DNA from: a virus
Lineage: Duplodnaviria; Heunggongvirae; Uroviricota; Caudoviricetes
Length of the DNA: 12,971 bases
Direction: 5' to 3' (one strand)
IMG/VR virus record: IMGVR_UViG_2718218128_000005
In this document: piece after piece, positions 1 through 12,971 of the stretch
Layout of the letters: each line of letters starts with the position of its first letter
How positions within the stretch are numbered: the first letter of the stretch is position 1
The notes under the pieces: model-generated
Seen by the model: only the letters and a program-made list of their open reading frames with translations
The model's database searches: none
What the model was told of the DNA's origin: nothing
Program-made: the position numbers and the translations under genes

Positions 1-153
1 AAACTGATGCGCATTTACAATCAGAAAGGCATCTTTTCAAACACAAAAGATTCCGAAGAAGGCTTAACACATATACTCTCAGAGCATTTCGAGAATGTTA
101 AAACCAAGGTTCAAGGTACTGTAGTAATTTTTTCCGCTTCAGGGAAAAAATAG
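1..153 (+). CDS. 3' end of an unidentified ORF running in from the left edge (partial)
   Basis: Frame 1 is open from base 1 to TAG at 151-153 (KLMRIYNQKGIFSNTKDSEEGLTHILSEHFENVKTKVQGTVVIFSASGKK*). No family recognised; it converges on tfa. Confidence 0.25.
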   Translation, partial: KLMRIYNQKGIFSNTKDSEEGLTHILSEHFENVKTKVQGTVVIFSASGKK

Positions 154-160
154 CATCCAA

Positions 161-193
161 CCGCAGCACGTTCTTGCTTAAGACGTGCTGCGG
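161..193 (-). terminator. Hairpin between convergent genes; possible tfa terminator
   Basis: 11-bp perfect stem CCGCAGCACGT(161-171)/ACGTGCTGCGG(183-193) with an 11-nt loop. On the minus strand a T6 run follows about 10 nt downstream, so it is not a canonical intrinsic terminator. Confidence 0.3.
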
Positions 194-207
194 CATAATC
201 CCAATGA

Positions 208-792
208 TTACTCCCTGACAGGGTTCGTAGGCCACTCAATATCAGGTGCAGTTGATGTATCAACACGGTTCAGCAACACCCGATACTTTTTCCAGGCTTC
301 CAGCAATGAGGTTTCTTCCTCCGTTGCGATTTCCAGATCTACAGCATCCTGAAGTGGCGCAATATGCTCACTGGCTACCTGCATCAGGCTGTTTTTTATT
401 TCTTCCGCCTCTCGGATCCGGAACAGTTTTTCTGCTTCTGCATCTTTCACCCAGGCTGTGCCGTTCCACTTCTGAAACTCCCCTTCCGGCGATAACCAGG
501 TAACATTTTCCGGTAACGGACCGAGTTCAGAAATAAATAACTCGTCCCCTGACGCTACGTCATAAACCGTTTTACCCCGATGGTCTTCAACGAGATGCCA
601 CGATGCCTCATCACTGTTGAAAACAGCCACAAAGCCAGCAGGAATATCTGGTGGTGCAATATCGGTACTGTTTGCTGGCAGACCTGTATGAGGCGGAATA
701 TATGCATCACCTTCACCAATAAATTCATTAGTTCCGGCCAGCAGATTATAAATTTTTATGGTCCGTGCTTGTTCACTCATTCTGAATGCCAT
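208..792 (-). CDS. tfa: Tail fibre assembly protein (lambda Tfa family), apparently intact, 194 aa
   Basis: The translation looks like lambda/lambdoid Tfa proteins from memory. ATG at 792-790; its start overlaps the stop of the upstream tail-fibre frame (TAATG). Confidence 0.88.
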
Positions 793-1067
793 TATGCAAG
801 CCTCACAATATAGTTAAATGCGATGTTTTTGACGGTGTTTTCCGCGTTACCAGCAGCGTTAACGGTGATGGTGTGTCCATGTGACCCTATCGCAACGGAG
901 TGCGTATGAGCACCAATATCCGAATAGAACGATATTGTAAATTCACCTAAATACGAGGCATTGCTGTAGTTGAATTGCAGTACTGTATTAGCCTGACAGT
1001 GACAGAATACGATATTGACTCTGTCACTTGTGAAATGGTCAGAATGGTTAGCAGTTATGGTGATCAG
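792..1067 (-). pseudogene. Side tail fibre (Stf-like) C-terminal remnant, about 91 codons with no start codon
   Basis: My translation of the minus frame 1067..795 is open and ends ...[30 protein letters not shown], which resembles lambdoid side-tail-fibre C-termini. The frame is closed by a stop at 1068-1070 and contains no Met, so the gene is 5'-truncated next to ybcW. Confidence 0.7.
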
Positions 1068-1270
1068 TCAACCAACAGGGAATAATCCTTCGTATTCTTA
1101 TCGTGCTTTACTAACGCGGCCTCAATTGCCCTGAATGCTTCCAGAGATACTTGATGTTCTATACATGCAATTACAACATCAGGGTAACTCATAGAAATGG
1201 TGCTATTAAGCATATTTTTTACACGAATCAGATCCACGGAGGGATCATCAGCAGATTGTTCTTTATTCAT
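1064..1270 (-). CDS. ybcW: Small prophage protein of unknown function, 68 aa (YbcW-like)
   Basis: 68-aa ORF with ATG at 1270-1268. Size, position and divergent orientation relative to ybcV match DLP12 ybcW as I recall it. Confidence 0.6.
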
Positions 1271-1555
1271 TTTGTCGCTCCATGCGCTTGCTCTTCATCT
1301 AGCGGTTAAAATATTACTTCAAATCTTTCTGTATGAAGATTTGAGCACGTTGGCCTTACATACATCTGTCGGTTGTATTTCCCTCCAGAATGCCAGCAGG
1401 ACCGCACTTTGTTACGCAACCAATACTATTAAGTGAAAACATTCCTAATATTTGACATAAATCATCAACAAAACACAAAGAGGTCAGACCAGATTGAAAC
1501 GATAAAAACGATAATGCAAACTACGCGCCCTCGTATCACATGGAAGGTTTTACCA

Positions 1556-1966
1556 ATGGCTCAGGTTGCCATTTTTAAAGAAATATTCGATCAAGTGCGA
1601 AAAGATTTAAACTGTGAATTGTTTTATTCTGAACTAAAACGTCACAACGTCTCACATTATATTTACTATCTAGCCACAGATAATATTCACATCGTGTTAG
1701 AAAACGATAACACTGTGTTAATAAAAGGACTTAAAAAGGTTGTAAATGTTAAATTCTCAAGAAACACGCATCTTATAGAAACGTCCTATGATAGGTTGAA
1801 ATCAAGAGAAATCACATTTCAGCAATACAGGGAAAATCTTGCTAAAGCAGGAGTTTTCCGATGGGTTACAAATATCCATGAACATAAAAGATATTACTAT
1901 ACCTTTGATAATTCATTACTATTTACTGAGAGCATTCAGAACACTACACAAATCTTTCCACGCTAA
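1556..1966 (+). CDS. ybcV: DUF1398-family prophage protein, 136 aa (YbcV/YdfO-like)
   Basis: The track ORF 1433..1966 contains an internal ATG at 1556 preceded by GGAAGG, which gives 136 aa ([13 protein letters not shown]...). Size and position match YbcV. The upstream ATG at 1526 and the track start at 1433 lack a Shine-Dalgarno sequence. Confidence 0.75.
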
Positions 1967-2256
1967 ATCATAACGTCCGGTTTCTTCCGTGTCAGCACCG
2001 GGGCGTTGGCATAATGCAATACGTGTACGCGCTAAACCCTGTGTGCATCGTTTTTAATTATTCCCGGACACTCCCGCAGAGAAGTTCCCCGTCAGGGCTG
2101 TGGACATAGTTAATCCGGGAATACAATGACGATTCATCGCACCTGACATACATTAATAAATATTAACAATATGAAATTTCAACTCATTGTTTAGGGTTTG
2201 TTTAATTTTCTACACATACGATTCTGCGAACTTCAAAAAGCATCGGGAATAACACC

Positions 2257-2550
2257 ATGAAAAAAATGCTACTCGCTACTGCGCTGGCCCTGCTTATTAC
2301 AGGATGTGCTCAACAGACGTTTACTGTTCAAAACAAACCGGCAGCAGTAGCACCAAAGGAAACCATCACTCATCATTTCTTCGTTTCTGGAATTGGGCAG
2401 AAGAAAACTGTCGATGCAGCCAAAATTTGTGGCGGCGCAGAAAATGTTGTTAAAACAGAAACCCAGCAAACATTCGTAAATGGATTGCTCGGTTTTATTA
2501 CTTTAGGCATTTATACTCCGCTGGAAGCGCGTGTGTATTGCTCACAATAA
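2257..2550 (+). CDS. borD: Bor outer-membrane lipoprotein (serum-resistance moron), 97 aa
   Basis: The translation matches lambda Bor as I remember it, with a lipoprotein signal peptide and lipobox LITGC. It sits opposite and convergent to Rz, as in lambda. Confidence 0.95.
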   Translation: MKKMLLATALALLITGCAQQTFTVQNKPAAVAPKETITHHFFVSGIGQKKTVDAAKICGGAENVVKTETQQTFVNGLLGFITLGIYTPLEARVYCSQ

Positions 2551-2556
2551 TTGCAT

Positions 2557-2582
2557 GAGTTGCCCATCGATATGGGCAACTC
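2557..2582. terminator. Palindromic hairpin between convergent bor and Rz
   Basis: GAGTTGCCCAT-CGAT-ATGGGCAACTC: 11-bp perfect stem with a 4-nt loop, overlapping the Rz stop codon. There is no strong U-tract on either strand, so terminator function is uncertain. Confidence 0.3.
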
Positions 2583-3043
2583 TATCTGCACTGCTCATTA
2601 ATATACTTCTGGGTTCCTTCCAGTTGTTTTTGCATAGTGATCAGCCTCTCTCTGAGGGTGAAATAATCCCGTTCAGCGGTGTCTGCCAGTCGGGGGGAGG
2701 CTGCATTATCCACGCCGGAGGCGGTGGTGGCTTCACGCACTGACTGACAGACTGCTTTGATGTGCAACCGACGACGACCAGCGGCAACATCATCACGCAG
2801 AGCATCATTTTCAGCTTTCGCATCAGCTAACTCCTTCGTGTATTTTGCATCGAGCGCAGCAACATCACGCTGACGCATCTGCATGTCAGTAATTGCCGCG
2901 TTCGCCAGCTTCAGTTCTCTGGCATTTTTGTCGCGCTGGGCTTTGTAGGTAATGGCGTTATCACGGTAATGATTAACAGCCCATGACAGGCCGACGATGA
3001 TGCAGATAACCAGAGCGGAGATAATCGCGGTTACTCTGTTCAT
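2582..3043 (-). CDS. rzpD: Rz i-spanin (inner-membrane spanin subunit), 153 aa
   Basis: The translation matches lambda Rz as I remember it. The true ATG is at 3043-3041, overlapping the R stop (ATGA); the track ORF begins 4 codons earlier at a GTG. Confidence 0.93.
2641..2823 (-). CDS. rzoD: Rz1 o-spanin lipoprotein, 60 aa, embedded in the +1 frame of Rz
   Basis: [24 protein letters not shown]... has lipobox VVGC and a proline-rich segment; it matches lambda Rz1 as I remember it. It lies entirely inside Rz. Confidence 0.9.
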
Positions 3044-3537
3044 TGCTGACCCCACAAACAGATTTCACGCTCAATCTCACGACGAGTCATGAGACCTTTC
3101 CATTGCTTACCGCCAGCATATGTCCAGCGACGTAGCTGATCACATGCGCCTTTGATATCGCCCTGGTTTATTTTGCGAAGAAGCGTCGATGTTCTGAAAT
3201 TGCCAGCACCCACGTTGTAAACGAATGAGTAAAGAGCGCCGCGCGTTGTTTCCGGTATATCGACTTTGATGTACGGGTTAATTTGTCTGGCGACAGTGGC
3301 AAGGTCTTTATTCAAGAGTGCTTTGCATTCTGCTTTGGTATACGTTTTACCGAGCATGATGTCTTTTCCTGTATGCCCGTGACATACAGTCCATACACCA
3401 ACAATATCTTTATATGGTATGTAGCTGACACCTTCCAGACCATCGTCACCACTCGGACCAGTGATGAGCACAGACGCTATGGCAACAGCCCCACCACCAA
3501 TAGCAGCTGCTACAGCCTTGCGTAATGATGGCGACAT
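3040..3537 (-). CDS. rrrD: Phage-21-type endolysin with N-terminal SAR domain (T4-lysozyme-like, GH24), 165 aa
   Basis: Gly/Ala-rich weakly hydrophobic N-terminus ([20 protein letters not shown]) followed by an E...D...T catalytic arrangement ([18 protein letters not shown]). Its ATG overlaps the S stop (TAATG). Confidence 0.93.
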
Positions 3538-3752
3538 TATTCACCTCTCGCAGCCTTACGCTTATCTTCTTTAATCTTGAAATAAAGGTTTGTCAGGTAC
3601 GTCAGCAGGCCAAATACCAGGCTACCCAGCACTCCAATTGCCGCCCACTGTGAGGGCGTGACTTTATCTAGCAGCTGTAAAAACCAGTACCCGGCACTAC
3701 CTGCTGAGGTGCCATAGGCGACACCCGTTGTTAACTTATCCATGGATTTCAT
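3537..3752 (-). CDS. essD: Pinholin S21-type holin with dual-start motif (MKSM), 71 aa
   Basis: 71 aa with two predicted transmembrane segments and Met1-Lys2-Ser3-Met4, the classic antiholin/holin dual start of phage 21 S. GAGGTGG Shine-Dalgarno sequence upstream. Confidence 0.93.
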
Positions 3753-3861
3753 AACCCCACCTCGCAGACAAAGCGGGTGTAAATTGAGGGAATACTACGA
3801 AACGTAACAGACTCGGAGTCAGTGAATAACTCAGGTATTGGGTTATCAGCTAATATCGAGA

Positions 3862-3897
3862 CTCAAAAAATGGAAAAACCCGCTCGACGGCGGGTTT
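3862..3897 (-). terminator. Intrinsic terminator on the minus strand about 110 nt upstream of S; candidate late-operon tR'-like terminator
   Basis: Stem AAACCCGC(3876-3883)/GCGGGTTT(3890-3897) with a 6-nt loop. On the minus strand it is followed directly by TTTTTCCATTTTTTG. Confidence 0.5.
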
Positions 3898-4325
3898 AAG
3901 CTGTGTGACGAAGTAACCACTCTTAACAGCATAACCAATTTTTTACGTACGTAAACCACTAAATGATATTTGCGAGAATGCTACCGAGTATTGAAAACAC
4001 CACTACAAATACATAAGCAAATCTCAACAAATAACCAACAAATAATTTCCAGTGTTATTTTTAGCCGATTTAAATTGAACCTTCAAATTATAGAGCACTT
4101 ATAAATAACAGCCGTTAATATAAATTGGCTAATAGATTTATTTTTATTCAGCCAAGAGCTATAAATAGGATTCGATAGAAAAAAGTTCAGATAAAAATAG
4201 AGATCTACTTCACAAATCAAACGAGAAACCAAAACTTACATCTTGAAATAATCACATTGATTAGATGAATATTTATCGCGCAGTGACATCATTTTTTAAT
4301 AATAGTTCAAAAAAAAGGGCTCACG

Positions 4326-5423
4326 ATGAAAAAATTAACAGTGGCAATTTCTGCTGTAGCTGCATCAGTACTGATGGCGATGTCTGCTCAGGCAGCTGAA
4401 ATTTATAATAAAGACAGTAACAAGCTGGATCTGTACGGGAAAGTTAATGCCAAGCACTACTTCTCCTCTAATGATGCAGATGATGGTGATACTACTTATG
4501 CCCGTCTTGGCTTCAAAGGTGAAACCCAAATCAACGATCAACTGACTGGTTTCGGTCAGTGGGAATATGAATTCAAAGGCAACCGCGCTGAATCTCAAGG
4601 TTCCTCCAAAGACAAAACCCGTCTTGCATTTGCAGGCCTGAAATTCGGTGACTACGGCTCAATCGATTACGGCCGTAACTACGGTGTAGCATACGACATC
4701 GGTGCGTGGACTGACGTTCTGCCAGAATTCGGTGGCGATACCTGGACCCAAACAGATGTGTTCATGACTGGTCGCACCACTGGTGTTGCAACCTATCGTA
4801 ACAACGACTTCTTTGGTCTGGTTGATGGTCTGAACTTTGCTGCTCAGTACCAAGGCAAAAACGATCGTAGCGATTTCGATAACTACACTGAAGGTAACGG
4901 TGATGGCTTCGGTTTCTCTGCTACCTATGAATACGAAGGATTCGGTATCGGTGCAACTTATGCGAAATCTGATCGTACCGACACTCAAGTTAATGCAGGG
5001 AAAGTTCTTCCTGAAGTATTTGCTTCCGGTAAAAATGCAGAAGTTTGGGCCGCAGGTCTGAAATATGACGCTAACAACATTTACCTGGCCACTACCTATT
5101 CTGAAACCCAGAATATGACTGTATTTGCTGATCACTTCGTTGCTAATAAAGCCCAAAACTTCGAAGCTGTTGCACAATATCAGTTCGATTTCGGTCTGCG
5201 TCCGTCCGTTGCTTACCTGCAATCTAAAGGTAAAGATCTTGGAGTATGGGGCGATCAGGACTTAGTCAAATATGTTGATGTAGGTGCAACCTATTACTTC
5301 AACAAAAATATGTCTACTTTCGTTGATTACAAAATCAACCTGCTTGACAAAAATGACTTCACTAAAGCACTCGGTGTAAGCACTGATGACATCGTTGCTG
5401 TAGGTCTGGTTTACCAGTTCTAA
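4326..5423 (+). CDS. nmpC: Outer-membrane general porin, NmpC/Lc (OmpC/OmpF family), apparently intact, 365 aa
   Basis: Signal peptide ending [10 protein letters not shown], general-porin-like sequence and the terminal ...VGLVYQF. It lies between Q and the lysis genes on the opposite strand, as nmpC does in DLP12. Confidence 0.93.
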
Positions 5424-5596
5424 TCTGATTACGAAAAAGATATGTTGCGGGAGGCGTTGCCTCCCCAACATATAAGTGGCTCCCTCAAGCCACTTCCTTT
5501 AGAAGCACAACCTTGCTTCTAACTATATAAACCTTCTGTTATATATTACCCTTTATTTTTGGGGGCGTCTCAACGCCCCATTTTTAATAATTTTTA
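5424..5596 (+). ncRNA. ipeX: Candidate IpeX-like small RNA / structured 3' region downstream of the porin gene
   Basis: Three successive hairpins (5449-5465 GGGAGGC/GCCTCCC; about 5471-5492 AAGTGGCT/AGCCACTT; about 5500-5517 GAAGCA/TGCTTC) plus the terminator at 5562-5596. I recall a porin-inhibitory sRNA (IpeX) mapped just 3' of nmpC in DLP12; the boundaries here are guesses. Confidence 0.25.
5562..5596 (+). terminator. Intrinsic terminator on the plus strand (porin / 3' RNA terminator)
   Basis: Stem GGGGCGT(5562-5568)/ACGCCCC(5573-5579) with a 4-nt loop, followed by ATTTTTAATAATTTTT. It would also shield Q from antisense read-through. Confidence 0.5.
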
Positions 5597-5612
5597 GTAA
5601 ACAATTGGCATA

Positions 5613-5996
5613 TTAATTAGAGTTATTAACAACGATATCCATCTCTAACCGGATATCTAATGCCATTAACATCCCTTCAATTATGCCCTCAGCCTTCTGT
5701 AACCTTTTCCCGATATAACCATCAGAGCAGCAATGCTTACCTGCCAGTGACATGAATGTCATACCGACTACATAATAATCTACTAATAAATCGTGCAAAT
5801 CGCTGTTGTTCTTTTTCAGACGGGCCATGCACCCGCAAATAATCATCGCGTCATCGTCACAACATTGCGGGCGAGATTTTACTTTTGAAGTAATTAATCC
5901 CTTAAAACCGGCGGCAATGGACGACCAGGTCACATCTTCATGATTATTAGCCGCCCACGCTCCCCAACGCTCAAGAACCATCTGAATATCACGCAT
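5613..5996 (-). CDS. quuD: Late-gene antiterminator Q, 127 aa
   Basis: ATG at 5996-5994 with GGAG upstream gives 127 aa ([18 protein letters not shown]...), the size of DLP12 QuuD. The track ORF starts 5 codons earlier at TTG. Confidence 0.9.
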
Positions 5997-6081
5997 CAAC
6001 TTACTCCACAAAAATCAGACCAGAACGCCAATTACAAGCAAAAATCAACAAAACAGTATTAGTTGATTGTTATCTCTGACT

Positions 6082-6219
6082 TCATACTCCTGCTCCTGTC
6101 AGGGTTTTGGCGTAATTCTTCAGTATTCGGTAATCGGTCAAAACAGAACCGGGGAAACGATATAAGCGCAGATGCCCCCAGCGGTGGCGAAGAAGTTCTG
6201 CCATATAAAACTCAAACAT
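6082..6219 (-). CDS. ylcG: Small nin-region ORF, 45 aa (YlcG-like)
   Basis: My translation from ATG 6219-6217 to stop 6084-6082 is [45 protein letters not shown]. Its start overlaps the rusA stop (TGATG), and its position between rusA and Q matches ylcG. Confidence 0.45.
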   Translation of the reverse strand: MFEFYMAELLRHRWGHLRLYRFPGSVLTDYRILKNYAKTLTGAGV

Positions 6220-6581
6220 CATTCATTCCCCATTTCGGTGATGGTCAGTTCCAGCCTCCCACCTTTGGTAACAGGCATCTTCACAACGCGGTAATCAACG
6301 ACCTGAGCATCATCCAGCCAGAAACCTGCTTTGGTGAGTGCGTCAAAAGCGGCTTTTTGCAGATTATCCAGGTCACGGCGACGGCGATCCGGCATGTGGC
6401 ACTCAATACGGATTTTCACTGGCATAGCCAGGCCGATATCCAGCATTGCGTTTTTAATGATTCGGGTGACGTTATCGCGGTATGCCTGCCCTTCTGCGCT
6501 GATGTGCGTGCGCCCGCGATTATGGCGGTAATAGCGATTATTGCTCGGAGGCCAGGGTAATGTGATGCTGTAGGTATTCAC
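6219..6581 (-). CDS. rusA: RusA Holliday-junction resolvase, 120 aa
   Basis: [18 protein letters not shown]... matches RusA as I remember it. GTG start at 6581-6579 overlaps the ybcO stop. Confidence 0.93.
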
Positions 6582-6868
6582 GCCTTAATAACCCCCTCTT
6601 TCAGCCAGATAACCTGTGTTCTCGCCATACCTTCCAGCGCGCATTCTTTTGCATATGCAGCATCGACAAAATGTGTGCGGCGGTCGATTTCGTCGTGGCA
6701 GGCAGAACATGCAATGGTGGCAATCAGGTCTGGCGGTTTGATACCGGTACCGCACAATCCAGCCAGCCGGATATGTGCCAGTACAGACGTTTCAGAATTG
6801 CCATTACATACGCCAGGGATTCTTACCTGGCATTCCCGACCACGCGCTGCTTTTCTCAAATCAGCCAT
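6578..6868 (-). CDS. ybcO: YbcO-like nin-region protein (DUF1364, putative nuclease), 96 aa
   Basis: ATG at 6868-6866 preceded by AGGAGG gives 96 aa ([23 protein letters not shown]...). The track ORF starts 13 codons upstream. Confidence 0.85.
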
Positions 6869-7031
6869 GATTCCTCCTTGCTGCCAGTCGCAACCATTTT
6901 TTATCAACCAGGCTAGCGGTATATCCGAGCAGTGTTGGTATTTCGGATGGCTTCGGCTCAGGCTTACGCTTACGACGATTTGATACTCTGTAGATGTGTC
7001 CGTTCATGACACGAATAAGCGGTGTAGCCAT
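6861..7031 (-). CDS. ninE: NinE, 56 aa
   Basis: My translation (ATG 7031-7029 to stop 6863-6861) is [56 protein letters not shown]. It is below the track's size cut-off; its start overlaps the ybcN stop (TAATG) and its end overlaps the ybcO start. Confidence 0.8.
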   Translation of the reverse strand: MATPLIRVMNGHIYRVSNRRKRKPEPKPSEIPTLLGYTASLVDKKWLRLAARRNHG

Positions 7032-7486
7032 TACGCCTCCTGCTTGTCACGGAGCAGCTGGAACTCGCAGCTCTGCGGAATAGTCAGGTGGCAGCCAATA
7101 TTCACCGCCCAGGCTTCAACCTTACACAGGAAGACATACATCTCTCCGGTATCAAGATCGGAGGTATGGCGTAACGACTGGATAGTGGTGATATCACCGG
7201 TTACGACATCAACCAGGTCTTTGGTTTCATAACCGAGATATGTGTGTTTGAGAGCATCTTTTACCCAAGCTGGAGTGGCGAACGTTTTACCCCTGTTGAT
7301 GAGGTATTCACTGATTTCGCTGTACCACATGTGGCTGAGTGCATTCTGGGAAAGACTGCGTTTCTCACGCCACGGTTTAAGCACCATGCGAAAGCATTTG
7401 CCCTCCTCCAGATAAGGCTGGATCTGCCGACCGATAGCGGTGAAGTTACCGCGATGTAATTTGATGCCATCTTGTGGGAGATTCAC
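7031..7486 (-). CDS. ybcN: YbcN-like nin-region protein, 151 aa
   Basis: 151 aa with a GTG start at 7486-7484 preceded by GGAGGTG. Size and position match DLP12 ybcN. Confidence 0.85.
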
Positions 7487-7682
7487 GCTTCACCTCCGCA
7501 GAGGTCAAACGCTGGATGCAAAAAATCGCAGGTGCATCTCTGCATCTGTGAAGGGAGAAGAGAGTTTGGATTGTATGTGCGCATAAACGTCCCCGTTTAG
7601 CGCAGAAGTCACCGGAGTTGTTCAGGCTCCGATGACATGATTATGGCAAAATGATTATGTAAAATCAAAAGCCAAAAAACAA

Positions 7683-8612
7683 TTATGGTTTATTTTCTAG
7701 CTCTGATTTTTTGAAAGCTTCTATCAGACGATTAGCATCTTCTGTACCACCAGGAAGCACGTTTGATTTTTTAAGAATATACGGTGGGAACTTTGTGGTT
7801 AAATATTCATGCTTAAACCATCTACGAAACTCTGACAATGCAGAATCAGGATAGGCATTAATGATCTGAGGATTGGAACTTGCCTGAAGAAAATCTTCAG
7901 GGTAATAATGCTCACAGTCTACTCTTTCTCCAAATTCTGTTGCTAACCCCTTTGCTTTCCAGTGACGCGCCCAGCAAGAACCAACACTGCCATCAGGTAC
8001 GGTATGCTGATTAATCGCTAATCCAGCATTGATGAGATCTACCATCATACCTGCAATTTCATTAAATATAATGAAATACCCATCAGGTATGGTTCCCTTA
8101 TCTTTTAATAAAGATACTCTGTCATGGTAATGCCTCCACGGGTCCTCCGGTTGATATTTTAGCGCCTCGTATATAAATGTCTTGAGGCCTTTTTTAGCAA
8201 GCTCTCTGTAAGATCTAATTGCAGTCTCACTTTCTGCTTGTTTTGCTTCAAAGGCATAGTATTCAAGTATAGCCATGCATACAACATCTGGATAAGCATG
8301 GTACTCAACACCATTTCGAATTATTGGTATATAAAGTTTTTCATCTGTAAAACCTTCATTAAGAAGATATGTACCAATAAAAGTCATTCTTCCTTTTTTG
8401 AAAATACCGTTCTCAACGGATTGAGCCCACTCATCGGTAATTTCCTTGATTCGCAAACGCTGAACACCACAAACATTTGCCAACCCATTCTGAGTAAGGT
8501 ACGGAATTCCGTTATCGAGTACCCCCATTTCTATACCGTTAATGACAGCCTCTTGCTTAACATCTAAGTCTAAAGGTATGGATCTGAGGGAGGTAGTTCT
8601 CTGTTGTGCCAT
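7683..8612 (-). CDS. AT-rich cargo gene of unknown function, 309 aa; candidate anti-phage/abortive-infection protein with a possible KilA-N/APSES-like N-terminal domain (BstA-like architecture is a hypothesis)
   Basis: Long ORF with ATG at 8612-8610 preceded by AGGA at 6-nt spacing (the track ORF starts 5 codons earlier at TTG). The N-terminal stretch VINGIEMGVLDNGIPYLTQNGLANVCGV resembles the DG-x-x-W-V-N-A-T-x-I-L-K-A-A-G core of KilA-N/APSES domains. The gene looks markedly more AT-rich than the flanking phage genes. The confidence given is for a real CDS, not for the functional call. Confidence 0.7.
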   Translation of the reverse strand: MAQQRTTSLRSIPLDLDVKQEAVINGIEMGVLDNGIPYLTQNGLANVCGVQRLRIKEITDEWAQSVENGIFKKGRMTFIGTYLLNEGFTDEKLYIPIIRNGVEYHAYPDVVCMAILEYYAFEAKQAESETAIRSYRELAKKGLKTFIYEALKYQPEDPWRHYHDRVSLLKDKGTIPDGYFIIFNEIAGMMVDLINAGLAINQHTVPDGSVGSCWARHWKAKGLATEFGERVDCEHYYPEDFLQASSNPQIINAYPDSALSEFRRWFKHEYLTTKFPPYILKKSNVLPGGTEDANRLIEAFKKSELENKP

Positions 8613-8718
8613 TTTTGATCCTATCAATTTGAATTCATTGAAAAAATTAGGTGTTCCCTATGCATTAGAACACTCATCATAGTAACCCCACTCGTTTGTG
8701 AAAAAAACTAATTTCACA

Positions 8719-8744
8719 ATCAGTTAACTCTCAAAATAACTGAT
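8719..8744. promoter_or_regulatory. Perfect 8-bp inverted repeat with a 10-bp spacer in the AT-rich leader of the 309-aa gene; candidate operator
   Basis: ATCAGTTA(8719-8726)-N10-TAACTGAT(8737-8744), about 110 bp upstream of the start codon. Confidence 0.3.
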
Positions 8745-8816
8745 ATTCATACTCTCGCTATCCCATATATAGACATCCTTGTTTTAATACAACACTCATG
8801 GCTGGCGGCTATACTC

Positions 8817-9134
8817 CTAACAGATTTGACGCAAATACGGCAATACTCGACTCCACTTATCATCCTGCCACGGCTGAAGTTTTACATGTGCCGTTTCTCG
8901 GACGAGGATTGCTCGCGCTCTGTTGAGTATCTGGGGATATTCTTGCTCGATGGAAGTGAAGTGACCAGCTTCACCATGCTCCGCATCCTGAAGAAGATGA
9001 GTAACGTTCTGGTAGGCAATTAACATCACATTCCCTGCTCGCCATAACCAGGCGAGTGTGCAAAGTTCGTTATCAGTGAATTGTTTTGTGATTGGGGATT
9101 GTTGAACTGCTAGAACGAGAACGCCAGCATCCAT
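8817..9134 (-). CDS. Hypothetical protein, 105 aa, upstream of the 309-aa cargo gene
   Basis: ORF bounded by a stop 3 codons upstream of its ATG, with a weak AGGGA Shine-Dalgarno sequence. No family recognised. It looks more GC-rich than its AT-rich flanks, so it could be a remnant or a real small gene. Confidence 0.4.
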   Translation of the reverse strand: MDAGVLVLAVQQSPITKQFTDNELCTLAWLWRAGNVMLIAYQNVTHLLQDAEHGEAGHFTSIEQEYPQILNRARAILVRETAHVKLQPWQDDKWSRVLPYLRQIC

Positions 9135-11428: not shown

Positions 11429-11731
11429 TCATTGTGTACCCATTGATGTTCTTTTATATACCCTCAATACGCGTTTCATCGCGGCACTCTGGCGACACTC
11501 CTTAAAAATCAGATTCGTGCTCACCTTTCCTTCCCGTTCTTCTCTGGTAGCGAACCGGTAATACACCGTTCGCCAGACCTTACCATCAACGACCAGGATT
11601 CCTGCCCGCGCCATTTTAGCCGCAGCCTGATTTATGCTGGTTACGGTTGCGCCTGTTACCGCGGCAACGTCCTGTGCACAGAAGCTCTTATGCGTCCCCA
11701 GGTAATGAATAATTGCCTCTTTGCCCGTCAT
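11429..11731 (-). CDS. ren: Ren (lambda Ren-like), 100 aa
   Basis: MTGKEAIIHYLGTH...KVWRTVYYRFATREEREGK... is near-identical to lambda Ren as I remember it. Its ATG overlaps the P stop (ATGA). Confidence 0.9.
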   Translation of the reverse strand: MTGKEAIIHYLGTHKSFCAQDVAAVTGATVTSINQAAAKMARAGILVVDGKVWRTVYYRFATREEREGKVSTNLIFKECRQSAAMKRVLRVYKRTSMGTQ

Positions 11732-12339
11732 ACACTTGCTCCTTTCAGTCCGAACTTAGCTTTAATTTCTGCGATCTTCGCCAGAGCCTGTGCACGATTT
11801 AGAGGTCTACCGCCCATAACAGGAAGTTGTTTTACTGGTTCAGGGATCGCCTCACCACGGTTAATTCTCGCAGTCATATGGACAAGCTCATCTGCGGCCT
11901 TACGGCGTAATTCCGCATCAGTAAGCGCATTGGCCCGCATGTTCTGATACAGGTTGGTAACCAGCCAGTAGTGCGCGTTTGATTTCCACGGATAAGACTC
12001 CGCATCCGGATACAGGCCTCGCTTCCGGCAATACTCGTAAACCATATCAACCAGCTCGCTGACGTTTGGCAGTCCGGCGATAACGGATGCTTCTTCCCGG
12101 CACCATGCAACAAACTGCCCGGGTGATGGCAGAAATGGTCGATTCTGCCGACGGGCTACGCGCATTCCAGCGTTAACCTGTTCCATTGTGGTGATCCCGT
12201 TTTCCCGGAAAGCCAGAACCCACTGGCGGCGGATTTCGTTCAGTTCATTCTGGTCACGGTTAGCCAGGCTCGCCGGGAAAGTTGCCAGTAACTGGCTGAA
12301 CACACCATTGATGATCTGCGCTACCTGCTGTACCAGCGG
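11728..12339 (-). pseudogene. P: Replication protein P (lambda P, DnaB helicase loader), N-terminally truncated
   Basis: The track protein ...FSQLLATFPASLANRDQNE...KAKFGLKGASV matches the C-terminal roughly 190 aa of lambda P as I remember it. The frame stays open upstream only to a stop at 12340-12342 and has no in-frame ATG; the track start at 12303 is a GTG encoding an internal Val. The first ~45 residues of P, and the gene O upstream, are absent. Confidence 0.85.
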
Positions 12340-12971
12340 TCAGAAACAAGCGAGTCAGATGGCTGGAAAAGGAGGAAGCAAAACGCCTTATTGATGAGTG
12401 CCCCGAACCACTGAAATCTGTCGTCAAGTTTGCGCTGGCAACTGGTCTGAGAAAGTCGAACATCATAAATCTGGAATGGCAACAAATCGACATGCAGCGA
12501 CGAGTTGCCTGGGTGAATCCAGAAGAGAGCAAATCAAACCGCGCCATTGGTGTGGCGCTAAACGATACCGCCTGTAAAGTGTTGCGTGATCAAATAGGCA
12601 AGCATCACAAATGGGTGTTTGTACATACCAAGGCGGCTAAGCGAGCAGATGGAACATCAACGCCTGCGGTCAGGAAGATGCGCATCGACAGCAAGACATC
12701 ATGGCTATCAGCTTGTCGTCGTGCAGGAATTGAAGATTTCCGTTTCCATGACCTCAGACACACCTGGGCAAGCTGGCTGATTCAGTCAGGCGTCCCATTA
12801 TCAGTGCTTCAGGAAATGGGCGGATGGGAGTCCATAGAAATGGTTCGTAGGTATGCTCACCTTGCGCCTAATCATTTGACAGAGCATGCGAGGAAAATAG
12901 ACGACATTTTTGGTGATAATGTCCCAAATATGTCCCACTCTGGAATTATGGAGGATATAAAGAAGGCGTAA
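12340..12971 (+). pseudogene. int: Tyrosine recombinase (phage integrase) C-terminal catalytic domain, truncated N-terminally at the junction with P'
   Basis: The frame is open from 12315. It carries ATGLR (catalytic Arg), HDLRHTWAS (H-x-x-R) and MVRRYAHL (catalytic Tyr). Only about 210 codons are present, so the arm-binding and core-binding N-terminal domains are missing. The stop falls at 12969-12971, the window edge. Confidence 0.8.

Follow-up and report, generated by a model that had tools for sequence, protein, structure and literature searches.

In the Escherichia coli K-12 prophage Qin (nohA-'stfQ-tfaQ-pinQ) a large internal deletion has removed the head and tail genes, so that the late region now passes from its packaging-gene end straight into a 3' part of stf, the side-tail-fibre gene, with a full-length tfa, the tail-fibre assembly (chaperone) gene, directly downstream. 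Its left breakpoint lies in nohA, about 320 Stf codons are kept as an annotated ORF and pin follows tfaQ. K-12 DLP12 (ybcW-ylcI-nohD-aaaD'-'tfaD-ybcY) has lost its morphogenetic genes through a separate deletion running from a terminase-A fragment into tfaD (aaaD'-'tfaD), which keeps ylcI, cos, nohD and the terminase-A fragment and cuts into tfa. Prophages of the DLP12 type are integrated beside the argU tRNA-Arg gene. In strain WL164 a DLP12 variant (nohD'-'stf-tfa-pin), with intD next to a tRNA-Arg gene, has a 5' fragment of nohD joined to a stf pseudogene of 230 codons, followed by an intact tfa and a pin cassette. In phage lambda the fibre gene (orf-401/orf-314) and tfa (orf-194) share one base between stop and start codon, and lambda has, or Ur-lambda had, a complete fibre gene.

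The locus described here lies in a stretch of 12,971 nucleotides, referred to below as the window (IMG/VR record IMGVR_UViG_2718218128_000005), and resembles each of these systems in part. It shares with Qin the loss of head and tail genes, the fusion to a stf 3' part and the whole tfa behind it, but differs from Qin in having its left breakpoint within the ybcW-ylcI spacer, in keeping no more than 41 start-less stf codons and in being followed, after tfa, by a methyltransferase gene. It is of the same prophage type as K-12 DLP12 and has likewise lost its morphogenetic genes; in contrast to K-12 DLP12, however, ylcI, cos and nohD are gone, the 41 stf codons survive and tfa is whole, the match of the window Tfa to K-12 DLP12 by tblastn starting only at residue 50. 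The two deletions are independent events. With WL164 it probably has the insertion site in common, and in both a shortened stf pseudogene immediately precedes a whole tfa, whereas both breakpoints, the number of stf codons, the retention of nohD sequence, the tfa allele and the presence of pin differ. The one-base stop/start overlap and the length of Tfa are those of lambda, although the window lacks 96% of stf, all receptor-binding sequence included.

Gene order and prophage type

The window was characterised by ORF listing and Pfam scans. From its right edge it contains a C-terminal integrase fragment, a lambda-P fragment with a ren-like ORF (11429-11731) beside it, emrE, the large serine recombinase gene ybcK, a P22AR_C fragment, a NinB-like ybcN, homologues of ybcO and rusA, the Q-family antiterminator gene quuD, an intact nmpC-type porin gene, essD, rrrD, rzpD with an embedded Rz1-type ORF, bor and the DUF1398 gene ybcV, and it ends on the left with ybcW, tfa and the 3' end of a class I methyltransferase gene. 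The succession quuD, nmpC, essD-rrrD-rzpD, bor, ybcV, ybcW...tfa and ybcY is that of DLP12, as is the order emrE, ybcK and intD at the other end, and the window is collinear with the K-12 DLP12, EH41 and WL164 prophages. By this gene order it is a DLP12-type lambdoid cryptic prophage of E. coli, seen in reverse orientation. It stops at the intD stop codon, and in WL164 the tRNA-Arg gene sits 16 nt past that point.

The nmpC-type porin gene (4326-5423, plus strand; 365 aa) is whole, and the K-12 DLP12 copy is split by IS5. Between ybcN and ybcK the window (7683-9134, minus strand) differs from K-12, which has ybcL and ybcM there, and holds a 314-aa ORF without a Pfam match (7683-8627, minus strand) and a 105-aa fragment with the C-terminal domain of the P22 antirepressor (8817-9134, minus strand), an arrangement shared by WL164.

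The methyltransferase gene, of the ybcY type and class I SAM-dependent, reaches into the window with its 3' end (1..153, plus strand); it is cargo of the prophage right end, convergent with tfa, and matches a CDS annotated as methyltransferase at 32175-32843 of the EH41 locus. Between the two convergent genes lies a hairpin (160..194) with an RNA fold of -28.5 kcal/mol (z -4.56), as stable as which none of 200 shuffles proved to be. It has no T-run on either side and was not called by the consensus terminator scan, and it may be a bidirectional transcript-end structure.

At the opposite edge intD (12315-12971, plus strand) is truncated at its 5' end, leaving residues 175-387 of a 387-aa integrase that are 99% identical to WL164 IntD, and abuts the C-terminal fragment of a lambda-P-type replication protein (11728-12303, minus strand; Pfam Phage_lambda_P, E 1.2e-60). 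This junction marks a second large deletion, which took away xis, O, the beginning of P and the regions for recombination and immunity. The element can neither excise nor replicate, and its being further crippled in this way fits stepwise decay.

The deletion junction

As a reference we used the intact prophage of E. coli EH41 (NZ_CP045213.1), which has the same position relative to the methyltransferase gene and the same gene order; it is a stand-in for the ancestor and not the ancestor itself, the left flank differing from it by 1.26%. By blastn the window resolves into two gap-free blocks collinear with EH41, one spanning 917-7671 (98.7% over 6,755 nt) and the other 1-923 (EH41 locus 32327-31406, 99.9%), with nothing between the two. 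Base-by-base extension from both anchors ends the left homology at 917 and the right homology at 918, with an exact overlap of 2 nt. The deletion junction at 917..918 is thus represented by a TA on the minus strand that is common to both parental flanks, and 23,398 bp are missing relative to EH41. The match around the breakpoint is imperfect (TCGG[A]TA versus TCGGTA), and dense mismatches begin just beyond the overlap on both sides.

The left breakpoint falls in non-coding spacer 147 nt downstream of ybcW, and the right one in codon 1091 of a stf gene of 1131 codons. Removed with the interval were 22 complete genes (ylcI, nohD, the large terminase subunit gene, W, the portal and protease genes, D, E, FI, FII, Z, U, V, G, T, H, M, L, K, I, J and lom) and the first 1090 of the 1131 stf codons, amounting to 96% of stf. 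Among the window ORFs there is no terminase, head or tail gene, and the view taken in the initial annotation, that these genes are deleted and that the stub is a deletion remnant of a lambdoid prophage, is borne out by the comparison with EH41. Also lost is the 12-mer GGGCGGCGACCT, which we take to be the lambda cohesive-end (cos) sequence; in EH41 it falls within the missing interval, and the window does not contain it. With cos deleted, the element would not be packageable, even by a helper phage.

Neither the breakpoint comparison nor the ORF listing revealed an IS, a long repeat or a transposase ORF in the junction flanks. Two shared nucleotides and no IS or repeat are the features of an illegitimate (microhomology) deletion. 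Homologous and transpositional recombination were also considered as the cause of the deletion and were rejected, the flanks having just TA or TCGG(A)TA in common. In all probability a single deletion accounts for the whole scar, with its dead 41-codon stf tail and its passenger tfa, and the event would have been an illegitimate one of ~23.4 kb inside a DLP12-type lambdoid prophage. Scars of this form are an ordinary and well-known product of prophage decay, to which the present one adds one more independent deletion allele.

Occurrence of the junction and of sibling deletions

The junction is known from this one sequence alone. The 36-mer GCGTATGAGCACCAATATCCGAATAGAACGATATTG and a 22-mer across 917/918 had no match in GTDB, taken as one representative genome per species, and none in JGI metagenome contigs, and when window 150-1500 was compared by megablast with 5,426 complete E. 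coli genomes, none of the records had the junction. In four of them at least 80% of the query was covered, but these proved to be other deletion variants that align in two pieces at 92-94% identity. Each side of the junction is found in complete E. coli genomes: window 923-150 is 99.6-99.9% identical to the region of the stf end, tfa and methyltransferase gene in other complete E. coli genomes, and window 1110-917 is 100% identical to ybcW-downstream DNA in 17 genomes among the complete E. coli megablast matches listed.

Further deletions of the same kind were encountered. In strain H2 the start of nohD is joined to DNA just upstream of tfa (nohD'-tfa), and in the Qin variants of GDSC2227PM and Combat13F7 a ybcW-like gene is followed by a 'phage tail protein, missing N-terminus' and then by tfaQ; such stubs are already marked as pseudogenes by the NCBI annotation pipeline. 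We counted at least four different breakpoints among DLP12-type prophages and several more in Qin. In every DLP12 and Qin case seen the morphogenetic block is missing and the deletion stops within stf or tfa or a little ahead of them; as these right-hand ends are examples from a few strains rather than a systematic survey, a non-random retention of tfa would be conceivable at most. Taken together, DLP12- and Qin-type prophages have lost the morphogenetic block repeatedly but have kept bor, the genes for lysis and for the porin, and the right-end cargo.

The open frame between ybcW and tfa

The last intact gene before the deletion is ybcW (1064..1270, minus strand), a late-region gene of 68 codons whose product is 94% identical to K-12 YbcW and which is annotated as ybcW in strain H2 and K-12. 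Behind it, on the minus strand, 91 sense codons (1067-795) stand open between an in-frame TGA (1070-1068), 4 nt from the ybcW stop (TGA, 1066-1064), and a TAA (794-792). A start-codon scan of this frame for ATG, GTG and TTG returned a single GTG (806-804), four codons ahead of the stop. The frame had been described as start-less and as closed by a stop adjacent to that of ybcW, and on both points the description is accurate. It had also been described as the last ~91 codons of stf joined directly to ybcW, which is not what we find. From the breakpoint it follows that 145 nt of native, non-coding ybcW-ylcI intergenic spacer (919..1063, minus strand) separate ybcW from the stf sequence and supply codons 1-50 (1067-918), and only the last 41 codons match Stf; the supposed 91-codon tail-fibre stub is accordingly a chimera of spacer (codons 1-50) and stf (codons 51-91).

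The genuine stf remnant (792..917, minus strand) is a pseudogene fragment that consists of the last 41 codons and the TAA and lacks a start codon. Its residues, 51-91 of the frame, are 100% identical to the C-terminus of EH41 Stf (residues 1091-1131; window 917-795) and carry the homology of the C-terminal His-box tip of Stf. By BLASTP they are 93% identical to residues 274-314 of lambda orf-314 Stf and are the sole aligned part of the frame, so that the alignment of the stub to lambdoid stf genes proposed in the initial annotation stands for residues 51-91 and fails for residues 1-50, where no fibre homology exists. In a tblastn search of 50,697 phage records the translation falls into two parts: residues 51-91 find the C-termini of side-tail fibres, with 100% identity in many lambdoid phages, and residues 1-52 or 1-63 match unannotated DNA just behind ybcW in lambdoid phages. 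The 41 retained residues are the invariant C-terminal tip of Stf. The gene is far from complete, with 1090 of 1131 codons absent relative to EH41 and the start, the N-terminal attachment domain and the shaft missing, and since a start codon is lacking we infer that the stub is not translated.

The spacer (919..1063) is 100% identical to that of EH41 (up to 8013 in the EH41 locus) and of phage PhiR30_1, and when the ybcW-ylcI spacers are placed in a multiple alignment, the window, EH41 and PhiR30_1 agree until ...TTCGGATA, after which the window diverges. The corresponding frame of intact EH41 stays open over 79 codons and has no start. In K-12 and strain H2 three 1-nt indels fall inside the 50-codon stretch and break the frame, which is therefore not conserved. 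Shuffles of the 150-nt spacer sequence were open in the given frame over 50 codons in 4.8% of cases, so that the openness of codons 1-50 is unremarkable. The possibility that these codons form a real small gene was considered and rejected, the region being unannotated in the phage records, disrupted by the indels in K-12 and H2 and without a Pfam match for either the 91-residue translation or its first 50 residues. The 41-codon stf tail, which chance has placed in the reading frame of a piece of spacer left open by accident, would thus be dead sequence.

Three other readings of the junction have to be weighed against a single deletion. The frame is open throughout, between the TGA (1070-1068) and the TAA (794-792), and has a bona fide Stf C-terminus at its end, as it would if the whole of it were the 3' end of stf joined directly at the ybcW stop; yet codons 1-50 agree at 100% identity with the spacer that follows ybcW in intact prophages and phages, in which stf is >20 kb away, tblastn and BLASTP align just residues 51-91 to tail-fibre proteins, and Pfam matches neither the full translation nor its first 50 residues. 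Refuted as it is by the EH41 extension, the spacer alignment and both protein searches, this reading retains practically no likelihood. The same open frame, whose first codons are 1-9 nt from the ybcW stop, could instead be a new expressed gene, initiated at a near-cognate CTG (1067), ATC (1064) or ATA (1058) or by reinitiation after ybcW, with a small product bearing the conserved Stf tip that could bind Tfa or interfere with the fibre assembly of incoming phages. Cryptic-prophage tail-fibre chimeras can indeed be anti-phage, as with StfE2, which blocks T2 adsorption (PMC12529663), but the analogy is a loose one and StfE2 arises otherwise, by site-specific inversion with proper starts (PMC12529663). 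The frame here has no ATG, GTG or TTG before codon 88, and its spacer part is start-less in intact EH41 and frame-shifted in K-12 and H2 and is not a conserved coding frame. As the junction is unique to this sequence, there is moreover no sign of selection on the chimeric frame, and with little more than its openness to speak for it we consider a new gene very improbable.

That the junction is found nowhere else, whether in the 5,426 complete E. coli genomes, the GTDB species representatives or the JGI metagenomes, is what would be expected if it were an artefact of assembly or a chimeric contig from a genome with an intact prophage. The flanks share exactly 2 nt, however, and with no repeat at the junction to collapse an assembly an artefact is unlikely; finished genomes commonly show this interval deleted between other breakpoints, and the second deletion at intD/P fits a genuinely decayed element, so that we allow an artefact only a slight chance. 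The reading as a single illegitimate deletion is the one that we adopt. For annotation its value is that the stf remnant becomes a pseudogene fragment of 41 codons, not 91, with its breakpoint at 917/918, and the significance beyond this is small.

The retained tfa gene

tfa (208..792, minus strand) was said to be intact and to overlap the stub by TAATG, and so it is. The ORF of 194 aa matches Pfam PF02413 (Caudo_TAP) with 151.6 bits against a cut-off of 22.1 (E 1.6e-44). Its product equals EH41 Tfa at 100% identity, and with lambda Tfa, likewise of 194 aa, it shares 93% identity over the whole length and no gaps. The stf TAA shares its last A with the tfa ATG (TAATG, 794-790), as in lambda orf-314/orf-194 and in EH41. 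A GAGG resembling a Shine-Dalgarno sequence (801..804, minus strand), for which a function in tfa translation would be conceivable, lies 8 nt upstream of the ATG, within the stf remnant.

The gene is ~270 nt downstream of ybcW. A consensus promoter and terminator scan of 100-2300 gave nothing between ybcW and tfa on the minus strand, its overall match rate being not above that of shuffles. We infer that tfa is probably co-transcribed, by read-through via ybcW, if a QuuD-dependent late transcript is made. It would then be an untouched passenger that brings its own Shine-Dalgarno-like motif and has no cognate fibre in the element. Window 1-918, comprising tfa and its flank, shows zero differences from EH41, and a tfa without differences gives no signal, either way, of selection after the deletion.

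The tfa coding sequence wholly contains (251-449, minus strand) a full-length match on the sense strand to Rfam IS009 (RF02111), with 227.8 bits against a gathering score of 117. It was the only match in the Rfam scan and is irrelevant to the junction; what the IS009 'sRNA' family models may simply be conserved sequence of tfa or of tfa pseudogenes. Apart from this tfa, one tfa-like sequence was seen, a tfaX-type fragment in EH41, outside the window.

Recombination with incoming phages and activity in trans

Lambda picks up markers from the stf-tfa regions of Rac and Qin at ~2e-6; of the two substrates, one measured 703 bp, was 88% identical and had 49 bp as its longest identical run, and for the other the values were 657 bp, 96% and 115 bp (PMC3945230). 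Between the window and lambda the homology begins exactly at the junction and extends over 763 nt, of which 91.7% are identical, the longest uninterrupted run being 71 nt. It is comparable to the Rac and Qin substrates, and by analogy with these a role of the stf'-tfa patch as a recombination donor to lambdoid phages would be mechanistically plausible, the donor mechanism itself being already known. Because the 41 Stf residues are the invariant tip, however, the locus could donate only its tfa allele and no receptor specificity. The 13 substitutions between the window Tfa and lambda Tfa are the only transferable differences, and a patch without receptor-binding information would by itself be unable to change the host range of a phage.

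Lambda Tfa can replace gp38 of T4 (Montag et al. 1989, as cited in PMC9659904), which suggests that the window Tfa, if expressed, could act in trans on incoming phages. The sole plausible activity of tfa would be of this kind, either the supply of chaperone in trans or the exchange of its allele by recombination with incoming lambdoid or T-even phages. We put very little weight on an active orphan stf-tip/tfa module, that is a defence or interference function born from the deletion scar, even with its two versions taken together: in one, Tfa from late-operon read-through would be kept for helping or poisoning the fibre assembly of superinfecting lambdoid or T-even phages, and in the other the 91-codon chimera, read from a non-canonical start, would act as a decoy bearing the conserved Stf tip.

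The matches of the 41-residue Stf tip also include T4-like phages, with 14 Tequatrovirus records among them and 100% identity in the myovirus vB_EcoM_G2285. A module of fibre tip and chaperone is common to lambdoid and T-even phages, and the Tequatrovirus matches fit this.
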